Positions 12,931 through 30,330 of a stretch of DNA of 64,000 nucleotides are shown piece after piece. Under the pieces are notes generated by a model. It ran no database searches. It worked only from the letters and a program-made list of their open reading frames with translations, and was not told the DNA's origin. The translations under genes were made by a program, and so were the position numbers. The stretch comes from a virus, in IMG/VR virus record IMGVR_UViG_3300013132_002633, positions 1-64,000 of that record; one strand, given 5' to 3'. Position 1 is the stretch's first letter. Each line of letters starts with the position of its first letter.

Positions 12931-15900
12931 ATGGCTGATCGGGAAATAGCAACAACTCCATTATGGTGGGAAATTCAAAATGTACCCACGCAAATGATAA
13001 GAGAGTTACGCCGCAGAAAAAACGGAACATCTTTTGGTTTTTCATATCCGAAAGATGTGACGACTATCAATTTTGATAATTCATATTCTTCATACAAAGG
13101 TCCACTTACACCATGGGTTAGAGTTTTTTCAAACAGCACAGGAAAACCCTCTAACGTATTAACTCCGCCATCTGGATATTTAATTAGAAAAAATGATCCG
13201 CTTTTTCAAGGATATGATGGATTTATTTTAAAAGGCGGTGACGGTTTTTACGATGCTTTTGGTTATGATAACAATACCGGACTCAAAGACAACAAAGACA
13301 AAAATGCTACAATTGGATATCAAGCCGATGGGAAGCCACATTATTTGAATGCGAATGTTACACAACTACAATATAGCACTACATCAGATCCAAAATTTCC
13401 ACAGAATAATTCCGTACCCAGAATTTTACCACCTCCGGGAGTAACGTCTGTAAATGTAAAACAGAGTAAGGAATTTTTGACATTTGCAACTATTAAATTC
13501 AAATGTTACAGTCTTGCACAACTTGAATATTTAACGCCATTTTTCTTAAACCCAGGAATAAACTTGTTTGTTGAATTTGGGTGGAATTTGTTTAACCAAA
13601 AATCATTGGTAAATTTGAAAGAGCCAAACGATTGTTGGAAATTAATTTCAAAACCACAAACTGCACTTGATTTATCAAATTTATCAAATGGAAATTATGG
13701 GTGCGTAACCGGAATTATAACCAAATATAAATTCAGCACCAATGACGGTTTTGTTTATGATTGTGATGTTGAAATGACATCGCGACAGGGACTTTATGCT
13801 GGAATGAAAACTGATAACGTTGTTACGACTTCAATAAAATCGGAGCGAGAACAACAAGATGAAAAAGTATATTTAAATCTCAAAAATTTTTGCAAAATAT
13901 ATCTACCGGCTATCAACGATGTAATAAAAAATAAACAAAATTTTTATATATACATCAAGAATAATTTTGAATTGATAGCTGATAAATATAGTAAAAGTAA
14001 TAAAGGAAAAGAAGATGCAAATGCAAACGCCGAGCAAATTAAGGCACCTGTGGCTAGTATTATAAACAACGACACAAACGGCAAAGACGACAACAGATTT
14101 TACGGCGGTAAATCAGAAGACAGAATATTTACAGGACGGCGAATTGATGTTTATGGAAAAGCTAAATCACCAGAGGACGCAGTAAAAGTAAATCAAGTAT
14201 ATGTCCCACCATCGCGTTCGCCCGTCGCCCTCGGTTACCTCGCGGGTGGAGAAATTAAGTATAAGGTAATTGAATATAAATTAAATGACAACAAAAAACA
14301 AATTTCATTTTTTGATCAACATGATTTTGATGCAAAAGATAATAATGATGAAGTTTGGCTACAATTGGATTTCGTATTTGAAATGTTTAATTTATTTATG
14401 TCAAATGGATTAGAGAGATTCAAAGTTGATATTAGTGATATTGTTATTAATGCACATCCCAATTTAATGCCATTAAATAAAGATTTATTGATTCCAAATC
14501 CGGTAAGTCCTAAAATAAATAAGGGTAGAAATAAAGGAATAAATCTTCAAGGTAAGCCAACTGGTTATTTAAAAAATGAGGCGAGTATAGTAGGAAAAAA
14601 TAAATATTTAAACTTAAAAGCTGATATAGATATAAACAGTAACAAAATACAACGTGTATTAGAAAAACAAAAAAATAATGAGACTTTGACTGACGAAGAC
14701 GGTTATATACTATCTTCTTTTGTAACCAAAAATAAATTCAAAACTCAGCTCTATGAAAGAGATAATATAGATACGATCATTAATTATTTATACTATGACA
14801 GTAAACAAACTGGTGAACAAACCGGTCGTAACGAATTTGGATCTGCTGCATTTCCATTTTATAAAGAAAAAACTGTTGGTAATACTAAGTATAAACCTTA
14901 TTACTATGGTTATTTTAAAAATCTGTTAATAAGTAAAACTAAGTTGATAGAAATTGTTACACAATCAAAAACTAATAATTATAAAGACGTAATAAAAAGT
15001 TTATTGAATTTTATAAACAACTCGGTAGATGATTTTTGGAAATTAGATATAGTGGAAAGAACTGATGGCCAAGGTTTATCAATTGTAGATAAAAATGGAG
15101 TGGGTAAGTTGAATGAAATATATATGTTTGATATTGCTAGCACCAACAATGTTATACGATCTATAAATTTTGATGTTAATACCAGCAATGAACAAGCTAT
15201 AAATGTTTTGTTTGGAGGACCTGTTGATAAAAATACAACACAACAACTTAAAGATGATATTAAAAATACAAATACGACATCTCAATATGAGTCAGTTTAT
15301 TCCAGGTTAACGAACGAGCCTTTATTGAAATTCGTAGATCGTATGGATAAATTTGAACTGCAAAACTTTTTGGCAAATCAAAGTGCATCAATAAATACGA
15401 CAGTTGCGCCTGGTACTCCTGACGGATTAGTAGATGAAAACAATGATATAGCACATTTGCAAACATATGGACCTAACCAAGACGTGTTAACAATGCAGGT
15501 TAAATTTATTGATGAAAAACCATCAACACCCAATACAAATACGCCATTCCTCCAATCCATAGTGGATCAAGTATATCTGTATATTAAAAATATACAAGAT
15601 GCCGAAGACAATTTAAATATAAAATTTTTGAACTGGCCAGAATCGATGAAAGGAATGTTGCGTGCAATATTGACAGATGGTGATATAGATAATAACGTTA
15701 AATACAGTGGTGTGGCTGACAATTTTCAACTTACAATAGTATTTGACGGGTTGTTTGGATTTAGAAATTTACAATGTTTTGCAATTTCCAATTTACCAAA
15801 GCCATATGTTCCTGGAAATGTAATATTTCAAATATTGGAAGCTGAACATAACATTGAATCTGGTAAATGGACAACAACGGTTACAGCGTTGGTGAGATCT

Positions 15901-15936
15901 GTTGGTGGCAATAATTATGATTATATAACTGTATGA
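12931..15936 (+). CDS. Large baseplate hub-like structural protein
   Basis: 1001 aa; PPPGVTSV, EFGWN, FQILEAEHNIESGKWTTTV; follows LysM gene. Confidence 0.55.
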   Translation: MADREIATTPLWWEIQNVPTQMIRELRRRKNGTSFGFSYPKDVTTINFDNSYSSYKGPLTPWVRVFSNSTGKPSNVLTPPSGYLIRKNDPLFQGYDGFILKGGDGFYDAFGYDNNTGLKDNKDKNATIGYQADGKPHYLNANVTQLQYSTTSDPKFPQNNSVPRILPPPGVTSVNVKQSKEFLTFATIKFKCYSLAQLEYLTPFFLNPGINLFVEFGWNLFNQKSLVNLKEPNDCWKLISKPQTALDLSNLSNGNYGCVTGIITKYKFSTNDGFVYDCDVEMTSRQGLYAGMKTDNVVTTSIKSEREQQDEKVYLNLKNFCKIYLPAINDVIKNKQNFYIYIKNNFELIADKYSKSNKGKEDANANAEQIKAPVASIINNDTNGKDDNRFYGGKSEDRIFTGRRIDVYGKAKSPEDAVKVNQVYVPPSRSPVALGYLAGGEIKYKVIEYKLNDNKKQISFFDQHDFDAKDNNDEVWLQLDFVFEMFNLFMSNGLERFKVDISDIVINAHPNLMPLNKDLLIPNPVSPKINKGRNKGINLQGKPTGYLKNEASIVGKNKYLNLKADIDINSNKIQRVLEKQKNNETLTDEDGYILSSFVTKNKFKTQLYERDNIDTIINYLYYDSKQTGEQTGRNEFGSAAFPFYKEKTVGNTKYKPYYYGYFKNLLISKTKLIEIVTQSKTNNYKDVIKSLLNFINNSVDDFWKLDIVERTDGQGLSIVDKNGVGKLNEIYMFDIASTNNVIRSINFDVNTSNEQAINVLFGGPVDKNTTQQLKDDIKNTNTTSQYESVYSRLTNEPLLKFVDRMDKFELQNFLANQSASINTTVAPGTPDGLVDENNDIAHLQTYGPNQDVLTMQVKFIDEKPSTPNTNTPFLQSIVDQVYLYIKNIQDAEDNLNIKFLNWPESMKGMLRAILTDGDIDNNVKYSGVADNFQLTIVFDGLFGFRNLQCFAISNLPKPYVPGNVIFQILEAEHNIESGKWTTTVTALVRSVGGNNYDYITV

Positions 15937-16351: not shown

Positions 16352-17641
16352 GTGATATTAAGTGATAAAATATATTTAAAGTTTATAACAAAAAATAAAA
16401 ATAAACACGCAAAGTGTGATGATATTATCGCTGCATTTATTTATAATTTTGAAGATAAATCCAAGTATTACATAAATTTTAGCCACACTGATGTTGTGAC
16501 TGATATGTCTTTTAATGAATTTAAAGACATGTTGAATAATTTGAACAATGTTTGTGTTTATGTAAATAACAAAAAGCGATATAGATATTGGTTAAGCTGT
16601 AATTTAATAGATATTAATTTATTTGAGTTTATCAAAAATAATTCACTGATTGAGTGGTGTGATGATGTAACTGAAAATTATATGTCTATATCATTTGGTA
16701 ATGTTAATGATTATAATTTGATAATTCCATATGTAATACATCAACGAATTTTTGATACAGAAGTAAAACAAATTGAAAGTTTACACAAAGAAAAAACGGA
16801 TACATATTGTTTTAAGTTCTTTAATAACATTGTAACCGATGCGCTATTTGAGGTAGAAAAAAATGGTATAGCGATTGATAAAAATATATTTTGCAAATAT
16901 TTTACTGCTAAAACATCCGACAACTATGTTTATACTGATTATCATATTTATAATCCAACTGGCAGACCGAGTAATTGTTTTGATGGAATAAATTATGCAG
17001 CTCTAAAAAAAGATGATGGTTCACGATCAAGTTTTATTTCTAGATATGATGGTGGATATTTGTTGATGGTTGACTTTACTGGGTTTCATCCATATATTGT
17101 TTCAAATTTAATAGGTTATAAGGTACCTGAAAATGAAACAATATACGAACATCTGGCAAAGATGTATTATGAAATTGAAAATGTGACTGTTGATATTATT
17201 ACCAAAAGTAAAAAGTTAACTATGGTAAATTTATATGGTCAAATCAAAGAACAATATCTGAACATTGAGTTTTTTCGAAAAACTGAAGAACTCAAAGAAA
17301 AGTACTGGGTTTCTTTTTTGGAAAAGGGATATGTTACAACTCCAATTTATAAACGTAAAATAACCAATAAGCATGTATCGGATGCTAATAAAAACAAATT
17401 ATTTGCATATGTTATACAAGCTGCGGAAACTGAATATGGAATGGATAGATTAAATGCTTGTATTAAATATTCATATAATAAACAAATTGTACCGATATTA
17501 TATAACTATGATGCTATATTATTTGACGTTGGTAATGTAAAAGATGAAGAAATTGCCGACTTGGTAAACATAATTAAAAATAAAAAATTTAAGGTAAAAG
17601 TTTATAAAGGTAATAATTACAACGATTTAATTCAGATGTAA
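16352..17641 (+). CDS. Compact, divergent family-A DNA polymerase-like protein
   Basis: TGRPSN; RSSFI; motif A MVDFTGFHP; motif B KKLTMVNLYG; IQAAET; motif C LYNYDAILFD. Confidence 0.7.
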   Translation: MILSDKIYLKFITKNKNKHAKCDDIIAAFIYNFEDKSKYYINFSHTDVVTDMSFNEFKDMLNNLNNVCVYVNNKKRYRYWLSCNLIDINLFEFIKNNSLIEWCDDVTENYMSISFGNVNDYNLIIPYVIHQRIFDTEVKQIESLHKEKTDTYCFKFFNNIVTDALFEVEKNGIAIDKNIFCKYFTAKTSDNYVYTDYHIYNPTGRPSNCFDGINYAALKKDDGSRSSFISRYDGGYLLMVDFTGFHPYIVSNLIGYKVPENETIYEHLAKMYYEIENVTVDIITKSKKLTMVNLYGQIKEQYLNIEFFRKTEELKEKYWVSFLEKGYVTTPIYKRKITNKHVSDANKNKLFAYVIQAAETEYGMDRLNACIKYSYNKQIVPILYNYDAILFDVGNVKDEEIADLVNIIKNKKFKVKVYKGNNYNDLIQM

Positions 17642-17668: not shown

Positions 17669-20035
17669 ATGAACTTTAAATCTGTATTAAATGATGTATG
17701 TTGTGACTCTAGAATCAAGAGCGGAATTTTAGATCTCAAAAACCCAGATCACGTATTTGTTTTGCAAGAATATCTGGAAAAGGTAGGCATTTCAATTGAT
17801 GAAATTGTCAATAAAACTGCTTCATTATTTGAAGCGGGTAGATTTCCAGAACGACAGGCATATAACAAAGATGGTATTTTAGTAACTTTTCCTAATAAAG
17901 AGTATCGTACCCGTGCTATAAATAAAGGTACTCATTTTGCAGAAAATCCTAAAAAATCACAGAGTAACATTTTTACAACTCAACCTGTAGGTGACGCATC
18001 GAATTCACAGAATAAATCTAATGACATTCAATCTGTCGATAGTGAATTAGAAAAAAGTGCTGATACGAGTGTAGATATAGAAAGAGAGAGAACTCCGAAA
18101 GAACGTGTAATCGATGCGAATGATGTTGATTATATTTTAACAGGAGAAAGTCCATTGGTTAATTACAGTGTAGACGAAGCAAAAAGATTTGGATTTTACA
18201 ATAAAGGATTAATTTGGTATGATGGCGACGGCAATTTAATCGGTGAACAGATATACGACGAGGTAAATAAAAAACCATTGATTAGGTTAAAAAAAGAAGC
18301 ATCTTTGGCACAAATAACCACGAAGGCTTTAAAGAAAATTGACATTTTGGATACGGAATTTGCAGAAATTCTACAAATATTAAAAACTGGATCCGTTTCT
18401 GGTAAAGACGATACGTTCAAGACTGATATATACGAAACTTTACCATTGTTGGTATTATACAACATAGAACTGTCAAACGCTACAAGTTTAGGTGGAGATT
18501 CAATAAAAAGAGCTGTTGATTTTATATCAAGAGTGGGAAATTTAAAGTCTAAATTAGAGGCTATTACTGATCAAGTTAAACGAAAGGAAAATCTTAATAT
18601 TTATGAATTGGTTGTAAACAGTTTATACGAGATCGGCGGAAAAAATGGTGTTTCTTTAAAAGATATTCTAACCAATAATCCATCTGATTTTATACATAAA
18701 TCAATTGACGAGTTTTATAAAATCGCAAAAAATTACGATGAAAAGTTCAATGGTAGTGAAAAAGGAAAGAAAAACACCGCCGATATTATAATAATATATG
18801 GTGGTACTAAAAACGATGTGTATGATGCGTTGAATTCTGGAAACATAGAAGATGTTACAAATGAATCGGTTGTTAAAATTAAAAATAAAAATATTTATTT
18901 TGCATTGGTGAGTTTGAAAGCAATGTCTGGAAGAGTCGGACGTGTATTCACTCAGCTTAGAAATTATTTAGATGTTGATTTAGAAATACAACCGTCATCT
19001 GAATATCAAAAAACATTAAAAGAAACTCGCCTGATACATGAGAGTTATTTTAACACGGTTAAAAATACATTTAATAATTTTATTGATAAATACAAAGAAA
19101 TATCTGATGTTGTAAAAGTAAAATATCGTGATTTGATAGATAATTTTTCTAAACTGACTGGTGGATTTATCGATAAAATACGAAACGATTTATTTACAAA
19201 ATTAAATCAAGAAACCTCTGTAATAGAAAAAAATTCATTTAAAGAATTTAAAAAGTTGGAAGATTCTATAAAAAATGAGATTGGTAATTTAAATGAAAAA
19301 AGCAACACTTCGTGCGGATCGGATTCGGTTGAATTAACAACATCTCTTAGAAAAAATCTGTCGGATTATCAAAAACTATTATCTGCTACAAATACAGATT
19401 CAGTATTAATTGAAAAATTAATAACAAATTCAAAAAATCCAACGGTAACAAAATATTTTAAATTTGAGATTGACACTGCCAATCTTGATAAGATTAAAAA
19501 TATAAAAAATGATATTAAATCATTATCAAAACGACTAGCAGATTCAGATATTAATTGTATTTCCAGAGAAGAATTATCTCCTGTATTGATGTATAGAAGT
19601 AATATACTAGCATTACAGTATATTGATTTAATAATGAATCGTATATTGCAGTACGTAAACTTATCGGATCCGGACAAAATTCAAAGTGAATTTTTAAAGC
19701 TAGCATCTGTTTTATCTACAGAGGCTATATTTGGAGGAAATGTAAGTTTGCCACTAATAAAATATACAGGCAATAAACTTGAAAGATTGGGTTATAAAAA
19801 TCAATACAAAATTAAAGTTCCCGATAAAATACCAGATTTAAAACTTGGAAAACTATCAGTCAAACTAGAACCTGATTTAAATGCTTATATGATTATAAAT
19901 CTTTATTTATTTTATGGCATTGAAACAAACGACGATGAAGTTACTCCTACATATGTTTTATACGAAATGAGAACTGAGAGTGGTAGTAGTTTTACATTTA
20001 AAGTTGAGGGAAATAAATTCGTAAATAAAATTTAA
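17669..20035 (+). CDS. Hypothetical protein (possible virion protein)
   Basis: 788-aa ORF preceded by TATTTATA motif. Confidence 0.6.
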   Translation: MNFKSVLNDVCCDSRIKSGILDLKNPDHVFVLQEYLEKVGISIDEIVNKTASLFEAGRFPERQAYNKDGILVTFPNKEYRTRAINKGTHFAENPKKSQSNIFTTQPVGDASNSQNKSNDIQSVDSELEKSADTSVDIERERTPKERVIDANDVDYILTGESPLVNYSVDEAKRFGFYNKGLIWYDGDGNLIGEQIYDEVNKKPLIRLKKEASLAQITTKALKKIDILDTEFAEILQILKTGSVSGKDDTFKTDIYETLPLLVLYNIELSNATSLGGDSIKRAVDFISRVGNLKSKLEAITDQVKRKENLNIYELVVNSLYEIGGKNGVSLKDILTNNPSDFIHKSIDEFYKIAKNYDEKFNGSEKGKKNTADIIIIYGGTKNDVYDALNSGNIEDVTNESVVKIKNKNIYFALVSLKAMSGRVGRVFTQLRNYLDVDLEIQPSSEYQKTLKETRLIHESYFNTVKNTFNNFIDKYKEISDVVKVKYRDLIDNFSKLTGGFIDKIRNDLFTKLNQETSVIEKNSFKEFKKLEDSIKNEIGNLNEKSNTSCGSDSVELTTSLRKNLSDYQKLLSATNTDSVLIEKLITNSKNPTVTKYFKFEIDTANLDKIKNIKNDIKSLSKRLADSDINCISREELSPVLMYRSNILALQYIDLIMNRILQYVNLSDPDKIQSEFLKLASVLSTEAIFGGNVSLPLIKYTGNKLERLGYKNQYKIKVPDKIPDLKLGKLSVKLEPDLNAYMIINLYLFYGIETNDDEVTPTYVLYEMRTESGSSFTFKVEGNKFVNKI

Positions 20036-21405: not shown

Positions 21406-21439
21406 AAAGCCGGTGGAGTTTTTATACCCCACCGGCTTT
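21406..21439 (+). terminator. Terminator-like hairpin between SSB and UvsX genes
   Basis: AAAGCCGGTGG ... CCACCGGCTTT. Confidence 0.7.
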
Positions 21440-21454
21440 CTAGTTATATACACT

Positions 21455-21748
21455 ATGGCAAAAAAATCTACAGTTTCAAAAGAATCTACACAACGAGATG
21501 AATTAATTGAGTTGTTGGCAAGTGAGCTTAATAAAGCAAATAAAGAAGGTGGCAAGATTGCATACTTTTTAGATGAACAAGAAAATCCAGCAGAAATTAG
21601 TGATTGGATTAGCACAGGATCATCTATATTGGATTTAGCAATCAGTAACCGTCCGCACGGTGGTCTTCCAGTTGGCAAGATGGTTGAATTCAACGGATTG
21701 GAAGGATGCGTAACCGAAGACACTATAATAAAAGTTATTATTGAATAA
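21455..21748 (+). CDS. uvsX: UvsX/RecA part 1: N-extein (84 aa) + 13-aa N-intein
   Basis: WISTGSSILDLAIS...GGLPVGKMVEFNGLEG then CVTEDTIIKVIIE-stop. Confidence 0.85.
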   Translation: MAKKSTVSKESTQRDELIELLASELNKANKEGGKIAYFLDEQENPAEISDWISTGSSILDLAISNRPHGGLPVGKMVEFNGLEGCVTEDTIIKVIIE

Positions 21749-22203
21749 AAATCTCCAATCCAACTATTAAAAGAAAAAAATCTGATGATAGATTTAGAAA
21801 ATTTGGAAAAATTAAAAAGAAATTTATGAATAGAATAGTAAAAGAAATAAAAGTTGGTGATGTTTTATCTCTCTTAGCAGAAGGTAAAAATATTAAAGTA
21901 TTGACTCGTAACAACGAGTATGTAAACATTACAAATTATGTAGATAAAGGATTATTAGATACATTTAAAGTTACATTAGATAATGGATTTACAATAAAGG
22001 TCTCTAGAGAACATAAATTTTTTACAAATGTTGGTTGGGTAGAACAGAGAAATTTAATTAAAGAAAATCACAAAATCTTTTGTGAAGATGGTGAATATCG
22101 TACAATACAAGATATAGAATATATTGGAAAACACAAAATTGTAGATATCACCGTTGATTCAGATGATCATTCGTATTTTGGAAATGGTATGCTTAATCAT
22201 AAT
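21707..22203 (+). mobile_element. Split intein UvsX-1 in Walker A (IntN 21707-21745, 13 aa; IntC 21826-22203, 126 aa)
   Basis: Cys1; block B VSREHKF; block F IVDITV; end YFGNGMLNHN|T; splicing restores GLEGTGKS. Confidence 0.8.
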
Positions 22204-22689
22204 ACAGGAAAATCATTGGTATCTGCACATGTTGTTGCTGATACTCAAAGAAAAGGTGGAGTTGCAGTTGTCATTGATACTGAAAACGCAGCTGCTCCTG
22301 AGTTCTGGAAAAGTTTGGGTGTAGATCTATCTAAGTTACTGTATGTTCAATGTGAAACCGTTGAAGATATTTTTGCTCAGATGGAAAAGATGATCGCAAT
22401 TGTTCGTAAGAGCAACAAAGATCGCATTCTTACAATCATTGTTGATTCTGTAGCAGCAGCATCAACTAAGGCAGAACTAGAAAGTGATCATGGTAAAGAT
22501 GGTTATGCAACTGGTAAGAGTATTATTATCAGCAAGGCGATGCGTAAGATTACTACCATGATTGGTCGTCAAAAGGTTCTTACTGTGTTTACCAATCAAC
22601 TTCGTCAAAATATAAATGCTATGGCATTTGGTGATAAATATTGTGTTGATCCGTATACAACAAAAATAAAAATTAGATATAAAATTTAA
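21826..22689 (+). CDS. uvsX: UvsX/RecA part 2: C-intein 1 + middle extein (146 aa) + 15-aa N-intein 2
   Basis: HN|TGKS, IDTENA, IIVDSVAA, FTNQLR, AFGDKY|CVDPYTTKIKIRYKI-stop. Confidence 0.9.
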   Translation: MNRIVKEIKVGDVLSLLAEGKNIKVLTRNNEYVNITNYVDKGLLDTFKVTLDNGFTIKVSREHKFFTNVGWVEQRNLIKENHKIFCEDGEYRTIQDIEYIGKHKIVDITVDSDDHSYFGNGMLNHNTGKSLVSAHVVADTQRKGGVAVVIDTENAAAPEFWKSLGVDLSKLLYVQCETVEDIFAQMEKMIAIVRKSNKDRILTIIVDSVAAASTKAELESDHGKDGYATGKSIIISKAMRKITTMIGRQKVLTVFTNQLRQNINAMAFGDKYCVDPYTTKIKIRYKI

Positions 22690-22697
22690 TTTTTCCT

Positions 22698-22741
22698 CCT
22701 CCTACTATACACTTATACTTAAATAAGTCCTTAGTAGGAGG
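22698..22741 (+). promoter_or_regulatory. RBS-sequestering hairpin upstream of endonuclease gene
   Basis: CCTCCTACTA/TAGTAGGAGG 10-bp stem plus inner ACTTAT/ATAAGT; AGGAGG ends 4 nt before ATG 22746. Confidence 0.8.
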
Positions 22742-22745
22742 TAAT

Positions 22746-23783
22746 ATGATTTTACTAGAATATTTAGATATAAATTTAACGTGGAAGAAAAATAAACCAA
22801 TTTTTAAATTTATAATTAAAACGGAAAAAAGAAAAACTAAAGAATTTCCTCTTAAATGTATTGTAAATAACAAAAGAATATCTAAAACAGGCAAAGAATA
22901 TTATATACATTATTTGGGAGAAATTGGAGAAGAAGTATATAACGAGAGAAAAAAGTTATATAGCATGTACAGTCTTATACCATTTTATATTAAAACGTAT
23001 AATAAAGATGTTGAGAAATTGAACGAATATCTTAAAATATTGAAAAGTAATAATGTGAACGGCATTAAAAAATTTTATTTGTCCGAAAAGGGAGCTGAAG
23101 CTAGAAAAATACAATCGGAATGGGGAATTAAACATTCAATGGAAATCTCATCTAGAAATAGAAAATTATGGAAAGAAGATGAGTATGTTAACAAAGTCAA
23201 ATCAAATCAAGATTATTCTTATGAAAATCATGGGAAGAAAATTTCCGATTTCTATAAAAATCAAAAAAATAAAGATTTCATAAAAAGTGTCATGAACTCC
23301 CCGAAGAGAATCGAAAAAATATCGTTATCATCTAAAAAAATGTGGGAACATGCAAAATCATTTAATAAAGAGATGTATTATAGAATGATAAATTCGCAAA
23401 AACATAAAAATTTTGAATTAAATGGATATAAACTTAATAATATCGAATATTTGGTAGGTAGTATATTAAACAATTTTTCTATAAATTGGGAATACGAAAA
23501 AATTTTTCAGTTTAAAACAACTTGTTATTTGCCCGATTTTTATGTAAGATCTAAAAATCTAATCATAGAATGTTATGGTGATTATTGGCACGCCAATCCT
23601 AAATATTTAAACGAAAACGATTTTACACATAAAAATAGATCTGTGAAAGATGTATGGGCATACGACTCTAGAAAAAAAGAAATTTTTGAAAACAATGAAT
23701 TTTCTTACTTATTTTTCTGGGAAAATGATATTCTAAATAACATAGATGGTATAAAAAAAACAATATATGAATACACAAGATAA
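22746..23783 (+). CDS. Vsr-like (DUF559-type) homing endonuclease
   Basis: PDFY...IIECYGDYWHANP...FFWENDI; between intein halves. Confidence 0.8.
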   Translation: MILLEYLDINLTWKKNKPIFKFIIKTEKRKTKEFPLKCIVNNKRISKTGKEYYIHYLGEIGEEVYNERKKLYSMYSLIPFYIKTYNKDVEKLNEYLKILKSNNVNGIKKFYLSEKGAEARKIQSEWGIKHSMEISSRNRKLWKEDEYVNKVKSNQDYSYENHGKKISDFYKNQKNKDFIKSVMNSPKRIEKISLSSKKMWEHAKSFNKEMYYRMINSQKHKNFELNGYKLNNIEYLVGSILNNFSINWEYEKIFQFKTTCYLPDFYVRSKNLIIECYGDYWHANPKYLNENDFTHKNRSVKDVWAYDSRKKEIFENNEFSYLFFWENDILNNIDGIKKTIYEYTR

Positions 23784-24609
23784 ATACATAGAAGAAGAAT
23801 TAACAATTGCCGAGTTTGCGGAAAGATTTTTAGGAATGAATAATTATTCATCTGAAAACGTTGAAGAAATAGATATATCGGATATGGATATAGAAATATA
23901 TGGTCGAGATTTAAAGTCCTCACAGGATTGCTATAATAAAATTAATAAATTTATAATCAAAACTCCATCGGAATATCATTACAGTGATGGTATACTGAAA
24001 GGCACAGATTTACATCGAATTATTGAAGATGGAGTTGAAATTCACTTGAAAGATCACAACGATTTCAAAAGGGTTAATGAACCAATAAAAGTTGTAGATT
24101 TCGATATTGAAAATACACACAATTATTATGCCAATGGTCGATTAAATCATAATACCGTAAGCGGTGGCAAGGCTTTGGCTTATCACTGTAGTGTTCGTGT
24201 TCGTTTGAACAACACTGGTAAGTTGAAAAAGGCAGAAGAAGTTATTGGCAACGAGTGTAAAGCAGTTGTTATCAAAAACAGAATGGGTCCGCCACAACGT
24301 CAAGCTAACTTTGAAATCTACTTTGACAGCGGTATTGCTGACTATAGTAGTTGGATCAAAGTATTGAAGGAGAATAACATTATCAAACAAGGTGGTGCGT
24401 ATTACTCTTACAGAAAAGAAGACGGTAGTGAATGGAAGTTCCAATCCAAAGACTTTGTATCTACCATGCAATCTGACAAGGTTTTAAAAGAAGAATTATA
24501 TCTTAAGATCTGTGATGCGGTTGTTATGAAATACAAAGATCCTAACAGTCAAATCGTTGAGGATGCTACTGTTGATACTGATGAAGAAACTGCTGGAAAC
24601 GACGAATAA
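23767..24609 (+). CDS. uvsX: UvsX/RecA part 3: C-intein 2 + C-extein (151 aa)
   Basis: HN|TVSGGKALAYHCSVRVRL...VIKNRMGPP...IKQGGAYY. Confidence 0.9.
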   Translation: MNTQDKYIEEELTIAEFAERFLGMNNYSSENVEEIDISDMDIEIYGRDLKSSQDCYNKINKFIIKTPSEYHYSDGILKGTDLHRIIEDGVEIHLKDHNDFKRVNEPIKVVDFDIENTHNYYANGRLNHNTVSGGKALAYHCSVRVRLNNTGKLKKAEEVIGNECKAVVIKNRMGPPQRQANFEIYFDSGIADYSSWIKVLKENNIIKQGGAYYSYRKEDGSEWKFQSKDFVSTMQSDKVLKEELYLKICDAVVMKYKDPNSQIVEDATVDTDEETAGNDE

Positions 24610-25682
24610 TGAATGAGTTAACACCAATCGAACGAAAGAAATTGTTCTCAATGTTCGAGAATATAGAAAGAGATTCCGTCATAACAGGACTTAAAAAATC
24701 GCTAAATAGTGATGTTCTGTTGGTTGACGGATTGTAGTTAAATACCTATATTCGTAGTTTCATGGCGATACCATCTTTAAATGACGATGGACTTCACACG
24801 GGTGGTATCGCCGGTTTTCTTAAAAGTGTAGGATACGCAATAAAATTATTGAGTCCTACCAGAGTTATAATTGTATTTGACGGAAAAGGTGGGTCTCAAA
24901 AAAGAAGAAAGATTTATCCAGACTACAAAAATGGACGTAGAACTGATATTAAATTAAACAGATCATATGATGATCTATCAAATTCGGTTATTGAAAAAGC
25001 CAATTTCAAAAAAGAATTGATACGTACTGTAAATTACCTCGACGTGTTGCCTGTTACTGTAATGGCTATTGATAATATCGAAGCAGATGATACGATTGCA
25101 TATCTAGCTAAACAAACATTCAAAGACAGTAAGGTTACAATTATGTCTACGGACAAAGATTTTTTACAGTTAGCGAGTGATCAAATAAATATTTGGAGTC
25201 CTGTAAAGAAAAAAATATTTGGTTGTAAAGAAATTATTGATGAATATGGAATAACATGTAAAAACTTCATATTTTACAGAATAATGGAAGGAGACGTAAG
25301 CGATAATATTACAGGTTTGGATGGCGTGGGATTAAAACGTGTTACACAAGCATTTCCTTTTTTGGGTGAAGATCCACAGGCGTGTTTACAACAAATATAT
25401 AATTATAGTGAAAATAATCGTAGCAGATATAAGATTTACGAGCGAGTATTAGACAATAAATTATTATTGGAACGTAATTATGAACTCATGCAATTACATA
25501 ATACACAAATTCAATCCTTTACTCAATTGAGAATTGAAGAGATTATAAATAAACCAGTTCCAAAAATTGATAAAATGAGTTTTAGTAAACTGATTACAGA
25601 AGATAAAATGTGGTCAAATATACCTAATTACATGTACTGGTTAAATGAGTGTTTTGGAAAATTAAATTCATTTGTTGAATAA
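24609..25682 (+). CDS. 5'-3' exonuclease / flap endonuclease (T4 RNase H-like) with in-frame TAG at 24735-24737
   Basis: ATG 24609 (TAATG overlap) in frame: VLLVDGL*LNTYIRSF; later VFDG, YKNGR, EADD, STDKDFLQL, GDVSDNITG. Confidence 0.85.
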
Positions 25683-25793: not shown

Positions 25794-26612
25794 ATGACTG
25801 AAAAAATTATAATAGATTCACTTCGTAAGTATGGATTGGACTTTCAAATAAAGTGCATAACGTGTCTGTTATCAGATCGTAGCTTTATGGAGAGAATTCA
25901 AGATATTGTTGAGGCTGAATTTTTTGAAAGTGATGCACAAAAATGGATTCTTAAAGAAAGTGTAAAATATTTTAATGAATATAAAGATCTTCCAACACTA
26001 ACTGTATTCAAGGTTAAAGTAGATACTGTTGAAAACGAGGTTCTTAAAAAATCTATTATAGATAGCCTAAAATTGGTTTATCAAAAGTTAAATGATAACG
26101 ATTTGAAATTTGTTAAAGAACAATTTTTGGAATTTTGTAAGAACCAAAAATTAAAGAATGCTATATTTGAAAGTGCTGATTTATTGGAAACAGGTCAATA
26201 TGACAAAATAAAGATGGTGGTTGATACCGCCATGAAAGCTGGTATGGAAAGAAATATTGGTCATGAATACGATGTAGAAATCGAAAAGCGTATGAGTATC
26301 ATGGCTCGTAACACAATAAAAACCAACTGGACTGAAATCGATACTATCATGGACGGTGGTCTTGGGCCAGGTGAACTTGGAATTGTTGTTGCGCCAGCAG
26401 GAATTGGCAAATGTATTGGTCCAAATACCGAAATTGAGATCGAATATCACGAATTTGGTATTGAAACATTATCAAGTTGCGGAAAATCATTTATAATGTG
26501 GATTAATCCGTTTGAAAAATATAAAATAGACGATGTTGAATTACTAGGTTGGCAAGTTGAAAATGTTTTTTATGAAATTGAAAAAATAAAACAAGAAAAA
26601 ACTAAAAATTAA
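25794..26612 (+). CDS. dnaB: gp41/DnaB helicase part 1: N-extein (206 aa) + 66-aa N-intein
   Basis: GGLGPGELGIVVAPAGIGK|CIGPNTEIEIEY. Confidence 0.88.
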   Translation: MTEKIIIDSLRKYGLDFQIKCITCLLSDRSFMERIQDIVEAEFFESDAQKWILKESVKYFNEYKDLPTLTVFKVKVDTVENEVLKKSIIDSLKLVYQKLNDNDLKFVKEQFLEFCKNQKLKNAIFESADLLETGQYDKIKMVVDTAMKAGMERNIGHEYDVEIEKRMSIMARNTIKTNWTEIDTIMDGGLGPGELGIVVAPAGIGKCIGPNTEIEIEYHEFGIETLSSCGKSFIMWINPFEKYKIDDVELLGWQVENVFYEIEKIKQEKTKN

Positions 26613-27798
26613 CGTTGACCGGCATCGGTAAGTATTTATAATAAATTTCATTTTTATGACATATGAGATCTATTTATTGACATGAGTATTAAAAAAGAAT
26701 TTTCAATATATCGATACCAATACTGGATGCAGAAATATGGTTTGACCGAAACCGACGCTAAAAATAAAGTCACATCAATTCAAAGAGAAAATGCGTTAAA
26801 ATCATCAAAGAAGTTCACGCCAGATCGATCTTATTTAAAAAAAGAATATTGGATTAAAAAGAAAGGATATACTGAGTCAGATGCTGTCAAAAAAATATCT
26901 GAGATTCAATCGGAGTATTCAAAAAAATCCAGTAGATTCACAGGCAAAATTAGAACAATTGAGAGCAAAATTAAAATTTCAAACTCATTAAAATCTAAAA
27001 TTGCCAAGATAGGCGGTGGCAATTGGGCAAAGCATTTTGGTCAATTTAATGGCAACTCTAAAATTGAAAAAGAATTTTATTTTTATATAAAAAATAATAT
27101 AAACACAAACGTTCAGGCAAATGTTCCTATATCAAATTATATAGTTGATGTTTTACATGAAACAAAAATAGTAGAATTTTATGGCGATTTTTGGCACGCA
27201 AATCCTAAATTTTATGAATGTGATGACCTTATAAAATCGTTTAGTATCAATAAAACTGCAAATGAAATATGGATCAGTGATAATCGTAGAATTGACATAT
27301 TACAAAAAATGGGGTATGATGTATTGATAATCTGGGAAAATGATTGGAAAAAAAACAAACAAGAGTGTATAGAAAAAATAAAAAAACATTATGAAATTAT
27401 TAATTAAAAATGTCCGTGAAAATATTAAAATAAAAGATTTATTTGATAGATTAAAAATTAAAGATGAAGAAAATGCGATGGAACAGTTAAAATTTCCATT
27501 AAAAGTAAATACACCATTTGGTTATAAAAAAATTGTGACAGCGTTTCGTACTGAAAAACAAAAAACAATAACTTCTTATTTTGGTAACAATAAAACATTA
27601 AAGACTTCTGGAAAACATAGATTAAAAGTAAACGGGAGTTGGAAATTCGTAGATGAAATAAACTCTGGAGAGCTAGTAGAAACTGAAGTTGGTACCACAA
27701 AATTAGTATCAAAAAAAGAAGGTCGAGACGAGATATTATATGATATATCGGTTGATGAAGTGCATTGTTATTATAGCAATGGCATTCTTTCCCATAAT
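26412..27798 (+). mobile_element. Split intein helicase-1 at Walker A (IntN 26412-26609; IntC 27391-27798, 136 aa)
   Basis: Cys1; TSGKHRL; LYDISV; YYSNGILSHN|S; splicing restores GIGKSW. Confidence 0.88.
26682..27407 (+). CDS. Vsr-like homing endonuclease
   Basis: VD...IVEFYGDFWHANP...IIWENDW. Confidence 0.8.
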   Translation: MSIKKEFSIYRYQYWMQKYGLTETDAKNKVTSIQRENALKSSKKFTPDRSYLKKEYWIKKKGYTESDAVKKISEIQSEYSKKSSRFTGKIRTIESKIKISNSLKSKIAKIGGGNWAKHFGQFNGNSKIEKEFYFYIKNNINTNVQANVPISNYIVDVLHETKIVEFYGDFWHANPKFYECDDLIKSFSINKTANEIWISDNRRIDILQKMGYDVLIIWENDWKKNKQECIEKIKKHYEIIN

Positions 27799-28503
27799 TC
27801 ATGGGTACTTGCCAAGTTGGGAGCTGAAGCAATGAAACAAGGTAAAAATGTTCTTCACTTCACACTAGAATTAAATGAAAACTATGTTGGATTACGATAT
27901 GATAGTTGTTTTACTGGAATTGATTTCCAAAATATCAGAAACAACATTGACATTGTAAAACAAAAGATTTCAGAAGTGCCTGGTAAACTTGTTATCAAGT
28001 ATTTTCCATTGAAGACGGTATCAGCTCATAGCTTAAAATCTCATACTGAAAGATTGGCTGTATTGGGTACAAAAATTGACATGATCGTTGTAGATTATGC
28101 AGATATTCTTCGTCCAGTACACAGTGATCGTAATAGCAACAGTTATAGTGAGGCTGGTGGTATTTACGAAGAGCTAAGAAGTATCGCGGGTGAACTTCAA
28201 ATTCCAATTTGGAGTGCAAGTCAAGCGAATAGGTGTCATTTGGTTGATGATCAAGTACTTACAAATCGAGGAACGATTAGACTAGGAGATTTGACTATTA
28301 ACGATTTGGTTTTGACTCACAAAGGACTTAAAAAAGTAACAAAAATTTTTCCAACCGAAACGCAGCCTGTTTATAAAATTAAATTAAGATCTGGTAAAGA
28401 GATTAATATATCTGCAAATCATAGAGTTCCAACCGCCGACGGCAGATTAAAATCATTAGAAACTGGGTTGTCTGTAGGCGACAAGTTATTTACAAAAAAA
28501 TAA
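27391..28503 (+). CDS. dnaB: Helicase part 2: C-intein 1 + middle extein (145 aa) + 89-aa N-intein 2
   Basis: HN|SWVL, HFTLEL, IVVDYADIL, WSASQANR|CHLVDDQV...SANHRV. Confidence 0.9.
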   Translation: MKLLIKNVRENIKIKDLFDRLKIKDEENAMEQLKFPLKVNTPFGYKKIVTAFRTEKQKTITSYFGNNKTLKTSGKHRLKVNGSWKFVDEINSGELVETEVGTTKLVSKKEGRDEILYDISVDEVHCYYSNGILSHNSWVLAKLGAEAMKQGKNVLHFTLELNENYVGLRYDSCFTGIDFQNIRNNIDIVKQKISEVPGKLVIKYFPLKTVSAHSLKSHTERLAVLGTKIDMIVVDYADILRPVHSDRNSNSYSEAGGIYEELRSIAGELQIPIWSASQANRCHLVDDQVLTNRGTIRLGDLTINDLVLTHKGLKKVTKIFPTETQPVYKIKLRSGKEINISANHRVPTADGRLKSLETGLSVGDKLFTKK

Positions 28504-29885
28504 TATTTTGTGATGCAGACCATATATTTAATATTATATGATTAACACTAAATTTAGAGATATTGTTCATTTAATGAACCAGAAGCCGTTCCGTGATTTT
28601 AAAAATGATTTAAGCGAATGCGTAATCAGTAACTTAAAAAAGGTCATATTAGAGTTTGATAAAAAATATATCTTGAATAACAAGAAAGAAGTCATACAGA
28701 ACATGATTAGATATAATGTTGATGGTGATTGGGTAGAGAGATTAAAAAATGGTGATAAATATAAAAAAGACGGATTTTCCATGGAAGCATTGATTGTGAA
28801 ATATGGCGAATCTGTTGCAAAGTTAATATCAGATGAAAGAAACGATAAAGTTGCGATTACCAAGGATAAATATATACGAAACCATAGTGAACATGAATGG
28901 GAAGAATTATGTAAAAAAAAGAGAAGTAATTTAGGACTTGATGGTTATATTAAAAAATATGGACATGAAGAAGGTTTAAAAAAATGGAACAATTACTTAA
29001 AAAAATGGAAAATTGGCATTGAAAAGAAAAAAGCTGATGGTTGGAAAAATGGTTTAACGATTGAGGAATATCAAACTAGATATGGAATAAAAGAAGGATA
29101 TGAACGTTGGAGAAAAAGAATAAATAGTAGAAAATATACTCTTTCTTTAGAAGGATATATTAATAAACACGGTGGTGAGTTGGGAAAAAAGTTGTGGGGT
29201 GAATATTGTAAATCAAATAATAAAACGTCGTTGGAGTCTTTTATCAAAAGATACGGTGAGAAGTTTGGAAAAGAAAAGTACGTTTTGATGCTAGAAAAGA
29301 TCTTTTGTTATTTAAAAAACCGAAGGTGTTATAGCATAATTTCCCAAGAATTATTTAAAAATGTAGCAGATAAATTGGAAAATAAAAATGATATAAAATA
29401 TGCAATACAAAATGGAGAGCAATATTTTTTTATTAATGAAAATTTTTGTAAAGGTATGTTTGTCGATTTTAAATATGGAAACATAATTATAGAATTTTAT
29501 GGAGATTTTTGGCATGCTAATCCATCTAAATACAAAGAAAACGATATAGTAAAACTTCCTAATAACAATAAATTGGCTAATAAAGTTTGGAGTGAAGATA
29601 AAGAAAAAATTGATTGGTTGGTAAAACGAGGATACAATGTAATGATTGTATGGGAAAGTGATTATTTGAAAAATAAAAATGAAGTGGTACAGAGTTGTTT
29701 AAATTTCATAAAACAGAACTATAAATAATATGACAGAAAAAATTACAAAAGAACACGATTTAAATCCTAATGAGTTTGAGTTAGATGAAATAGTCAACAT
29801 AGAGTGTATAGGTGATCATGAAACGGTTGACATTACTGTGGATGACACGCATATGTTTTTTGCAAATGGTGTATATACACACAAT
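28234..29885 (+). mobile_element. Split intein helicase-2, canonical split (IntN 28234-28500, 89 aa; IntC 29730-29885, 52 aa)
   Basis: Cys1, block B ISANHR; TVDITV; FFANGVYTHN|S. Confidence 0.9.
28538..29728 (+). CDS. Vsr-like homing endonuclease with N-terminal (K/R)YG-E-G repeats
   Basis: Repeated YIxKYGxEEGxKKW; VDF...IIEFYGDFWHANP...VWESD. Confidence 0.8.
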   Translation: MINTKFRDIVHLMNQKPFRDFKNDLSECVISNLKKVILEFDKKYILNNKKEVIQNMIRYNVDGDWVERLKNGDKYKKDGFSMEALIVKYGESVAKLISDERNDKVAITKDKYIRNHSEHEWEELCKKKRSNLGLDGYIKKYGHEEGLKKWNNYLKKWKIGIEKKKADGWKNGLTIEEYQTRYGIKEGYERWRKRINSRKYTLSLEGYINKHGGELGKKLWGEYCKSNNKTSLESFIKRYGEKFGKEKYVLMLEKIFCYLKNRRCYSIISQELFKNVADKLENKNDIKYAIQNGEQYFFINENFCKGMFVDFKYGNIIIEFYGDFWHANPSKYKENDIVKLPNNNKLANKVWSEDKEKIDWLVKRGYNVMIVWESDYLKNKNEVVQSCLNFIKQNYK

Positions 29886-30215
29886 TCAGCAGCAGACGAA
29901 GACATTGTTATGGCACATCACGCTGCCGACAGTTATCGTAAAATCATGACTGCCGATTTCGTAATGAGTGTGTCTCGCAAGACAAACGATAAAGTAAGTA
30001 ATACAGCACGATTCCACATTATTAAAAATCGTTTCGGACCAGATGGTTTGACATTCCCAAGCAAAATGAATGCTGGCTGTGGTCAGATTGAGATTTATGG
30101 TGAAAACAGTCGTGAAGGTCTGGCTGTGTTGAATGAAATGATGGACGGTGAGAACAATGTGAAAAAAGTCTTAAAAAATAAATGGAACGCACATAATGCT
30201 AATGACGATGAATAA
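29730..30215 (+). CDS. dnaB: Helicase part 3: C-intein 2 + C-extein (109 aa)
   Basis: HN|SAADED...ADSYRKIMTADFV...IIKNRFG. Confidence 0.9.
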   Translation: MTEKITKEHDLNPNEFELDEIVNIECIGDHETVDITVDDTHMFFANGVYTHNSAADEDIVMAHHAADSYRKIMTADFVMSVSRKTNDKVSNTARFHIIKNRFGPDGLTFPSKMNAGCGQIEIYGENSREGLAVLNEMMDGENNVKKVLKNKWNAHNANDDE

Positions 30216-30330
30216 TTCATAGTTAAATTTATTTAATTAAATAAAAATTTATGCATAAATTAATAAAAAATTATTGAACATAAGAGAACTAAATTTGATA
30301 GTTATTTTCTACCTAAAGAAAGATTATAAT

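Follow-up and report, generated by a model that had tools for sequence, protein, structure and literature searches.

Among the closest described counterparts of the locus reported here, a UvsX/RecA recombinase gene carried in three pieces by an uncultured lake phage, are the fractured genes of environmental T4-like phages. In those genes the protein's N-terminal portion with its N-terminal intein half (IntN) is followed by a short non-coding segment, the gene of a GIY-YIG or Vsr-like endonuclease, and the C-terminal intein half (IntC) with the protein's C-terminal portion, all on one strand; a hairpin lies over the ribosome-binding site of the endonuclease gene, and one locus, gp41-7, has no endonuclease (PMC2677866). 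The DNA analysed here, called the window, is a stretch of 64,000 nt from a 76.5-kb IMG/VR virus record (IMGVR_UViG_3300013132_002633; completeness estimate 25%). An initial annotation of the window had proposed that its UvsX/RecA is assembled from three polypeptides by two split inteins with N-halves of 13 and 15 aa. Our analysis indicates that uvsX was very probably invaded at two sites by inteins, each of which was split by an endonuclease gene, and that trans-splicing would rebuild a 381-aa recombinase.

Inteins with an unusually early break have also been described. VidaL has an IntN of 16 aa and is split at the S1 site, after beta-strand 2, according to PMC13014065. PolB16 OarG has a natural S1-type split and a 15-aa IntN, which was called the shortest characterized in 2023 (PMC10189870) and was still called record-short in 2026 (PMC13014065). 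AceL-TerL and GOS-TerL are split after the first helix (S2), with an IntN of 25–37 aa (PMC13014065). The statement of the initial annotation that fractured genes with split inteins are known from T4-like environmental phages is borne out by PMC2677866, and VidaL and PolB16 are natural S1 splits.

A recombinase gene in three pieces

The ORF (open reading frame) list and the sequence place RecA/UvsX in three plus-strand ORFs at 21455-21748, 21826-22689 and 23767-24609. Part 1 (97 aa from its ATG) ends in GLEG followed by CVTEDTIIKVIIE and TAA. Part 2 (287 aa) is composed of a putative 126-aa IntC ending in HN, the segment TGKS...GDKY, and CVDPYTTKIKIRYKI followed by TAA, and part 3 (280 aa) begins with a putative 129-aa IntC, also ending in HN, and continues with TVSGGK.... 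These ORFs and junctions are exactly those that the initial annotation had read from RecA motifs, and the pieces cover the Pfam RecA profile consecutively (Table 1). PHROGs assigns all three to a UvsX-like recombinase, with residues 1-83 of part 1 covered.

Excision of both inteins in silico leaves 84+146+151 = 381 aa, and the product was aligned with P0112, an uninterrupted protein of the same 381 aa, end to end at 93% identity with 0 gaps. The Walker A junction NGLEG/TGKSL (the slash marks the point of insertion) is the same in both proteins, and the sole difference at the L2 junction concerns the +1 residue, GDKY-T-VSGG in the excised product versus GDKY-V-VSGG in P0112. The gapless alignment agrees with the earlier claim that removal of the inteins restores a 381-aa RecA with intact Walker A and L2 regions. 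The host-protein segments (exteins) are closer to bacterial RecA (expectation value, E, about 1e-24) than to T4 UvsX (E 4e-5), and that of part 1 can be aligned to E. coli RecA up to GPES. None of the three pieces contains a frameshift or an internal stop. No close cultured relative was found by blastn against cultured phages, which gave two weak extein matches, the best to Microcystis phage Mel-JY01 (68%).

Intein 1 in the Walker A loop

Intein 1 interrupts the Walker A loop at the point that corresponds to GPES/SGKT of E. coli RecA. Its C-terminal half (IntC1), in the part 2 ORF, matches the Pfam families Intein_splicing and PT-HINT, and sequence searches related it to the solved inteins gp41-1 (E 1e-8), Spl DnaX and DnaE. 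The matches to solved inteins became stronger with a profile built from 26 IntC1 sequences, the overall range of E being 1e-8 to 1e-14. The catalytic set is kept: Cys1, block B SREH, the end ...GMLNHN/T, and Thr or Ser at +1. Among relatives, H63, H125 and N126 of IntC1 are invariant, as is Cys1 of the N-terminal half (IntN1) in 44 part-1 sequences.

Among part-1 homologues, 44 clusters have a tail of 13 aa following Cys and 10 clusters one of 14 aa; about nine further part-1 clusters, with Gln or His at -1, escaped the tail-length pattern. The clusters with a stop at 13 or 14 aa (more than 54) reach down to about 50% extein identity. In the fetched viral loci, the stop codons of IntN1 are TAA in 14 cases, TGA in 7 and TAG in 3. 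Those of the N-terminal half of the second intein (IntN2) are likewise TAA (20), TGA (11) and TAG (2), and because all three codons are used at both sites, the stops are taken to be true terminations and not a recoded codon.

The two halves of intein 1 in the window add up to 139 aa, inside the range of contiguous intein 1 alleles (134-146 aa). The ratio of nonsynonymous to synonymous substitution rates (dN/dS) was 0.26-0.53 for IntC1 and 0.04-0.21 for IntN1; the synonymous divergence (dS) is saturated for both, so the IntC1 figure is rough. With this reservation about dS, the values suggest roughly that intein 1 is under purifying selection.

Intein 2 in the L2 region

Intein 2 is inserted in the L2 region, at GDKY/TVSGG, and its sequence is divergent. 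Blocks F and G alone are recognisable, Pfam gives no match, and a sequence search of the PDB with its C-terminal half (IntC2) returned marginal matches only. Foldseek with the model of the whole of part 3 gave RecA matches alone, because the extein dominates that model. Conservation nevertheless marks the splicing residues: H83 (in TDLH), D111, H128, N129 and T130 of IntC2 are invariant in relatives, the half ending ...GRLNHN/T. Cys1 of IntN2 is invariant in 18 middle-piece sequences, in which C273, P276, T279 and K280 are also invariant and V274 and D275 nearly so. In many loci the IntN2 tail is 15-20 aa long.

The fold was evaluated on L148, a contiguous allele of intein 2, which was modelled at a predicted local distance difference test (pLDDT) of 93 and a predicted template modelling (TM) score of 0.86. 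This model places the 15-aa boundary in the turn that links strands E13-18 and E21-26. The PDB matches listed for it are inteins and a few closely related HINT (BIL) domains, at TM scores of up to 0.74, and they include Aes123 PolB1, NrdJ-1, TFIIB, RadA and VidaL (TM 0.63); identity to any listed solved relative is at most 18%. The IntC2 region of the window itself was modelled at pLDDT 68-89. The two halves of intein 2 in the window together measure 144 aa, inside the range of contiguous intein 2 alleles (132-165 aa), and dN/dS was 0.05-0.13 for IntC2 and 0.03-0.06 for IntN2, compared with 0.04-0.12 for the exteins. The halves of intein 2 thus appear to be under purifying selection like that of the exteins.

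When the two inteins were compared by hhalign, the probability of homology was 98%, with 26% identity over the C-terminal 88 columns; the N-terminal, IntN-binding parts gave no alignment, and homology is therefore seen at the profile level only. Taken together, these results support the reading that both insertions are true inteins whose break lies after the second beta-strand and whose IntN measure 13 and 15 aa.

Predicted association of the intein halves

A complex was modelled from residues 1-140 of the part 2 polypeptide (IntC1 with 14 extein residues) and the last 38 residues of part 1 (60-97). The complex score was 0.76, compared with 0.02 for the best of three controls; the mark set for this score is reached by 58 of 80 solved complexes and by 2 of 110 mismatched pairs. 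Because many inteins have been solved, the score expresses likeness to solved inteins more than measured binding. The runs agreed in at least 71% of contacts, with a partner pLDDT of at least 54. On the part 1 side, the modelled interface comprises residues 83-97, that is, the 13-aa IntN and the two residues before it. On the IntC1 side, it comprises 3-11 and 21-26, which form strand pairings, 57-63 in block B, and 124-127 (HN and +1).

The charges of the two pairs are opposite. IntN1 carries a net charge of -2 versus +3 for the first 30 residues of IntC1, and IntN2 carries +3 versus -10 for the first 50 residues of IntC2.

No terminator-like site was found between the three pieces and the endonuclease gene that lies among them, all of which are on one strand; this is weak evidence on co-expression. 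Matches to sigma-70-like promoters were no commoner than in shuffled sequence. The analysis shows the anatomy, the conservation and selection, the fold, the predicted interface and the series of alleles described below; co-expression of the pieces, their splicing and the orthogonality of the two inteins are inferred.

Endonuclease genes and the 77-nt gap

The second break is filled by a 345-aa ORF that matches Pfam DUF559 (E 4e-5) and phrog_22677, and whose 3' end overlaps the start of IntC2; the initial annotation had left this ORF unmentioned in its account of the locus. Orthologous ORFs were found in the same intein 2 break of relatives, and dN/dS of this endonuclease was 0.16-0.21. Upstream of it, a predicted hairpin with a stem of more than 10 bp folds at -21 kcal/mol (z -3.85), and 0 of 200 shuffled sequences folded as well.

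The first break is a gap of 77 nt and contains a mini-ORF at 21785-21829 (MIDLENLEKLKRNL and a stop) whose TGA overlaps the ATG of IntC1. In relatives, the endonucleases of the intein 1 gap have the C-terminus ...IIDxxNLEKLKRNI(I/K/V), with a 4-nt overlap between their stop and the ATG of IntC1. Because the mini-ORF matches this C-terminus and repeats the overlap, the 77-nt gap is read as the scar of a deleted endonuclease gene, and longer or shorter versions of the same remnant occur in the short-gap alleles L087, L089, L092 and L095. The gap thus appears still to code the last 14 residues of a lost homing endonuclease, and intein 1 would have remained split after the loss of the enzyme that had split it.

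The intein 1 gap ORFs of relatives code for PD-(D/E)XK nucleases with weak Phage_endo_I and TnsA-like matches (L088, L093, L104, L107, L109, L120, L146 and L151), some with N-terminal helix-turn-helix domains. The Vsr-like enzymes found in the breaks of intein 2 and of the helicase belong to a different, unrelated family. The 5' untranslated regions (UTRs) of the intein 1 endonuclease genes carry inverted repeats that surround a TATTTATA-like motif.

Table 1. Coordinates of the three-piece uvsX locus in the window, with the evidence for each predicted feature
Feature	Position	Strand	Evidence
UvsX/RecA N-extein, 84 aa; last residues NGLEG, Walker A loop	21455-21706	+	Pfam RecA 3-64, PHROG, alignment to E. 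coli RecA
Predicted IntN1, 13 aa, CVTEDTIIKVIIE and TAA	21707-21748	+	tail length in relatives, variety of stops, complex model
77-nt gap, apparent scar of a lost homing endonuclease gene	21749-21825	+	remnant of an endonuclease C-terminus
Predicted IntC1, 126 aa, block B SREH, block F/G ...VDITVDSDDHSYFGNGMLNHN, +1 Thr	21826-22203	+	Pfam, solved inteins, profile match to VidaL
Middle extein, 146 aa, TGKS......FGDKY	22204-22641	+	Pfam RecA 62-196
Predicted IntN2, 15 aa, CVDPYTTKIKIRYKI and TAA	22642-22689	+	invariant residues in 18 middle pieces
Predicted RNA hairpin burying the Shine-Dalgarno sequence AGGAGG, endonuclease 5' UTR	22698-22741	+	folding energy versus shuffled sequences
Putative Vsr-like (DUF559) free-standing homing endonuclease, 345 aa	22746-23783	+	Pfam, phrog_22677, orthologues in relatives
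Predicted IntC2, 129 aa, block B TDLH, block F/G VVDFDIENTHNYYANGRLNHN, +1 Thr	23767-24153	+	invariant residues, fold of a contiguous allele
C-extein, 151 aa, TVSGGKALAYH..., and stop	24154-24609	+	Pfam RecA 198-261; RecA structures, E 1e-24

Alleles of both inteins in related loci

A scan of IMG/VR with an alignment of the middle piece yielded about 75 loci. The middle piece has 6,637 homologues, and many of those among the matches listed begin with IntC1. A middle piece of the IntC1-extein-IntN2 type occurs in at least 18 clusters, both breaks were found in three viral contigs, and the three-piece layout is kept across lineages that differ by 40-50% in protein sequence.

Intein 1 exists in three forms among these relatives. 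It is contiguous in nine loci, with a linker of 1-8 residues at the position of the break; it is split with a 360-449-aa ORF (1.1-1.3 kb) in the gap in many relatives; and it is split with a gap of 9-502 nt that has no ORF or short ones only. The most compact split seen is that of L116:4974-4988, in which the IntN1 stop and the IntC1 ATG are 9 nt apart in the same frame (TAATTATAGAGGATG). Among the relatives the frame of IntC1 is offset by 0, 1 or 2 relative to that of IntN1, and in most of them the frame that lies upstream of IntC1 stays open for a few codons only.

Intein 2 is contiguous in some loci. In others it is split, either at 15-20 aa with a Vsr/DUF559 ORF of 282-365 aa in the break or, in L128 and L129, with an IntN of 28 aa and no ORF. 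In an alignment, the break falls in a loop of 0 to about 35 residues of the contiguous alleles. A later split, with an IntN of 32-41 aa and a conserved ...D(E/D)NS(E/P)FY.EYH.KL... segment, occurs in L092, L096, L130, L162 and L167, and these alleles mark a second position at which this intein family is naturally split. Every stage is thus represented at both uvsX sites: alleles that are contiguous, that bear an endonuclease gene, that keep a remnant of one, or that are cleanly split.

The intein 2 cassette also shows signs of mobility. When 22642-24153 of the window was compared with L009:5520-7031, IntN2 had 0 differences, and dS was 0.36 for the endonuclease and 0.49 for IntC2, versus 0.89 and 1.88 for the flanking exteins. 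The cassette is less diverged than the exteins, as is expected of homing between diverged uvsX genes. In runs X1-X3, a contig stays with the window as far as 22641, where the Tyr codon that precedes Cys1 ends, and then continues with GTGGTAAGTGGTGGTAAG... or GTGGTAAGTGGTGGTAAGGCA, which code VVSGGKALAY with Val and not Thr at +1. Two other joints in the run contigs (22517 to 24274 and 22620 to 23576), whose sides are shorter than 30 nt or hold replaced sequence, were set aside. An intein-free uvsX allele therefore circulates, as far as these contigs indicate, in the same lake samples and is the presumed target of homing.

Alternative explanations for the three ORFs

The three ORFs could instead belong to a decaying pseudogene whose inteins no longer splice, recombination being supplied from elsewhere, either the host or a different gene. 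In favour of this, the estimated completeness of the contig is only about 25%, and the intein-free alleles that leave the window sequence at 22641 show that uninterrupted uvsX genes exist in the same lake samples. Set against this, every catalytic residue is intact, dN/dS lies well below 1 in the exteins, the IntN and IntC halves and the endonuclease, the pieces are free of frameshifts and internal stops, and the layout has been retained in lineages 40-50% apart; we consider decay improbable.

Equally improbable, in our view, is an assembly in which the pieces associate non-covalently through their intein halves and are never ligated. The precedent is NrdA, whose fragments are held together by interaction domains that belong to a mobile element (PMC3045599). 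The predicted association of IntN1 and IntC1 could also act as a dimerisation module. However, the breaks fall in the Walker A loop (GLEG/TGKS) and in L2, where about 140 attached intein residues would probably block the binding of ATP and DNA, and Cys1, the terminal HN and the +1 Thr or Ser are strictly conserved, as would be expected only if the chemistry is used.

The initial annotation had named reads across intein 1 as the place where a contiguous intein would become visible. For intein 1 to be contiguous, translation would have to pass the stop at 21746 by a -1 frameshift, or this stop would have to be a sequencing error within the run of A; the intein would then read CVTEDTIIKVIIE, about 27 extra residues, then MNRIVKE.... 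The stop context (GAA TAA AAA) and the IntC1 frame, which is open upstream to 21745 (153 open codons versus a 126-aa IntC), agree with such a reading. That open stretch is explained by A-rich sequence and by what is left of the endonuclease C-terminus, which lies in another frame. Logan contigs from three lake-metagenome runs of three studies, one of which may be the source sample, cover 21423-22368, 21622-22368 and 21648-22008 with 0 differences, and none has an indel across the IntN1 stop, the gap or the start of IntC1. Given a stop position that more than 54 clusters share and that is written as TAA, TGA or TAG, relatives whose frames are offset by 0, 1 or 2 and soon closed, whole endonuclease genes housed in many of their gaps, and a linker of 1-8 residues in true contiguous alleles versus the 27 required here, this reading is rejected as the least probable of the three.

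Comparison with characterised inteins

The fractured genes of Dassa, London, Stoddard, Schueler-Furman and Pietrokovski (2009) have the same layout and hairpin as intein 2, and intein 1 resembles gp41-7 in being without an endonuclease. They differ from the present locus in having a canonical split, with an IntN of about 100 aa by the sizes in PMC13014065, whereas here the break is of the S1 type. In addition, UvsX is only a neighbouring gene in those loci, whereas here it bears the two breaks itself.

VidaL is the nearest characterised relative of intein 1. The IntC1 profile matched it (PDB 6vgv) with E 5e-11, residues 23-145 of VidaL being aligned to profile positions 2-126. With the IntC1 of the window alone, phmmer did not return VidaL among matches at E<=1, so the two are far apart in sequence. 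The VidaL construct (6vgv/6vgw) ends in ...GIVSHA-SGK, a C-extein of the Walker A type, as in HN/TGKS here and HN/SGKS in relatives; both inteins are Cys-dependent, and by this alignment their breaks lie in the same loop or no more than a few residues from it. Because of the profile match, the type of C-extein and the shared split loop, intein 1 is regarded as belonging, distantly, to the VidaL family and as apparently sharing VidaL's insertion site and split loop. They differ in the length of IntN (16 aa in VidaL versus 13 aa) and in the +1 residue (Ser versus Thr), and the locus studied here has a second S1-split intein on the same protein. Intein 2 resembles VidaL by fold, at the TM score given above. 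Neugebauer et al. 2017 reportedly named inteins 'VidaL UvsX-2' and 'T4Lh-1', and the former may be the L2-site family of intein 2.

PolB16 OarG shares the S1-type split and the 15-aa IntN. It differs in having Ser1 and Ser+1, in being cysteine-less, in its PolB host and in its 168-aa IntC, and its fold compares with that of intein 2 at TM 0.50. AceL-TerL and GOS-TerL, as described in PMC13014065, also derive from metagenomic phage genes and have a short IntN. A longer split like theirs is seen in the intein 2 alleles with an IntN of 32-41 aa from other contigs and is absent from the window.

The initial annotation had called the arrangement unusual and had stressed the 13-aa half. The length does fall below those of characterised natural IntN, for which the minimum in the literature is 15 aa (PMC10189870, PMC13014065). 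The arrangement itself proved to be common, 13 aa being the modal length, seen in more than 44 clusters, and the middle piece recurring in at least 18. A full-text search of the literature with short N-intein motifs gave no match. As read from these sequences, what goes beyond published work is the conserved natural 13-aa IntN, the presence on a single protein of two S1-split inteins whose charge patterns are opposite, and the full series of alleles at both sites, with the 77-nt gap recognised as the scar of an endonuclease.

Neighbouring genes

Genes for a gp32-like protein, an RNase H/FEN protein and a DnaB/gp41-type helicase neighbour uvsX. In the interval from the gp32-like gene to uvsX, a strong inverted repeat of 14 bp (AAAGCCGGTGG...CCACCGGCTTT) at 21406-21439 scores as terminator-like on the minus strand only. 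Downstream lie a short ORF (24609-24737) and the FEN/RNase H ORF (24762-25682), with TAG between them.

The helicase gene, too, is broken into three (25794-26612, 27391-28503 and 29730-30215), and its breaks hold DUF559/phrog_22677 endonuclease ORFs at 26682-27407 and 28538-29728. HINT matches were obtained at 27406-27798, 28324-28491 and 29730-29885, and the first helicase IntC gave weak matches to VidaL and gp41-1 (E 0.004). With those of uvsX, this makes four split inteins in 9 kb.

A class II (B12-dependent) ribonucleotide reductase is coded at 30274-32304. Six ORFs of 429-1001 aa have no Pfam match at E<=0.001 (7654-10152, 10174-12630, 12931-15936, 16352-17641, 17669-20035 and 35108-37267).

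Discussion

We propose that class 1 mini-inteins invaded uvsX at two conserved sites, and that free-standing homing endonuclease genes then inserted in the loop after the second beta-strand (the S1 site), cutting each intein. The endonuclease gene of intein 1 would later have been deleted, leaving 77 nt, and intein 2 would have retained its Vsr-like endonuclease gene, with the ribosome-binding site buried in the hairpin. In the proposed assembly, the acidic IntN1 hairpin completes the fold of IntC1, and the basic IntN2 hairpin that of the very acidic IntC2. Two trans-splicing reactions, each with a Cys1 thioester, attack by the +1 Thr and cyclisation of Asn, would then join the pieces into the 381-aa recombinase. 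The middle piece bears both IntC1 and IntN2, one at each end, and the opposite charge polarity may prevent it from cyclising or mispairing.

Several points weigh against this proposal. Its support consists of sequence, conservation and models. The complex score was obtained from our own alignments for a fold with many solved relatives, so that it speaks for likeness more than for binding, and the model covers the IntN1-IntC1 pair only. The saturation of dS affects the intein 1 comparisons. A 13-aa IntN might require a co-translational context or bind weakly, and a second, intact uvsX could lie elsewhere, the contig being about 25% of the genome. Despite these points, we consider the trans-splicing of a twice-invaded uvsX very probable. 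The stronger claim, that the 13-residue IntN1 is fully functional, is the shortest natural N-intein and is orthogonal to the oppositely charged 15-residue IntN2, stands in our judgement at even chances.

The known picture of how inteins function is unchanged by this locus, which would not surprise an intein specialist. Short natural N-inteins are wanted as synthetic tags for semisynthesis, and a widespread 13-aa IntN would offer dozens of natural variants with matching IntC partners as a ready test panel; the differently charged 15-aa pair from the same protein is a second candidate for tag testing. For the family, the series of alleles would document the way in which a free-standing homing endonuclease gene gives rise to an atypically split intein, and that the split outlasts the enzyme. 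If the stronger claim is true, nature already runs a one-pot ligation of three fragments by means of two peptide-sized tags that can be made by chemical synthesis.

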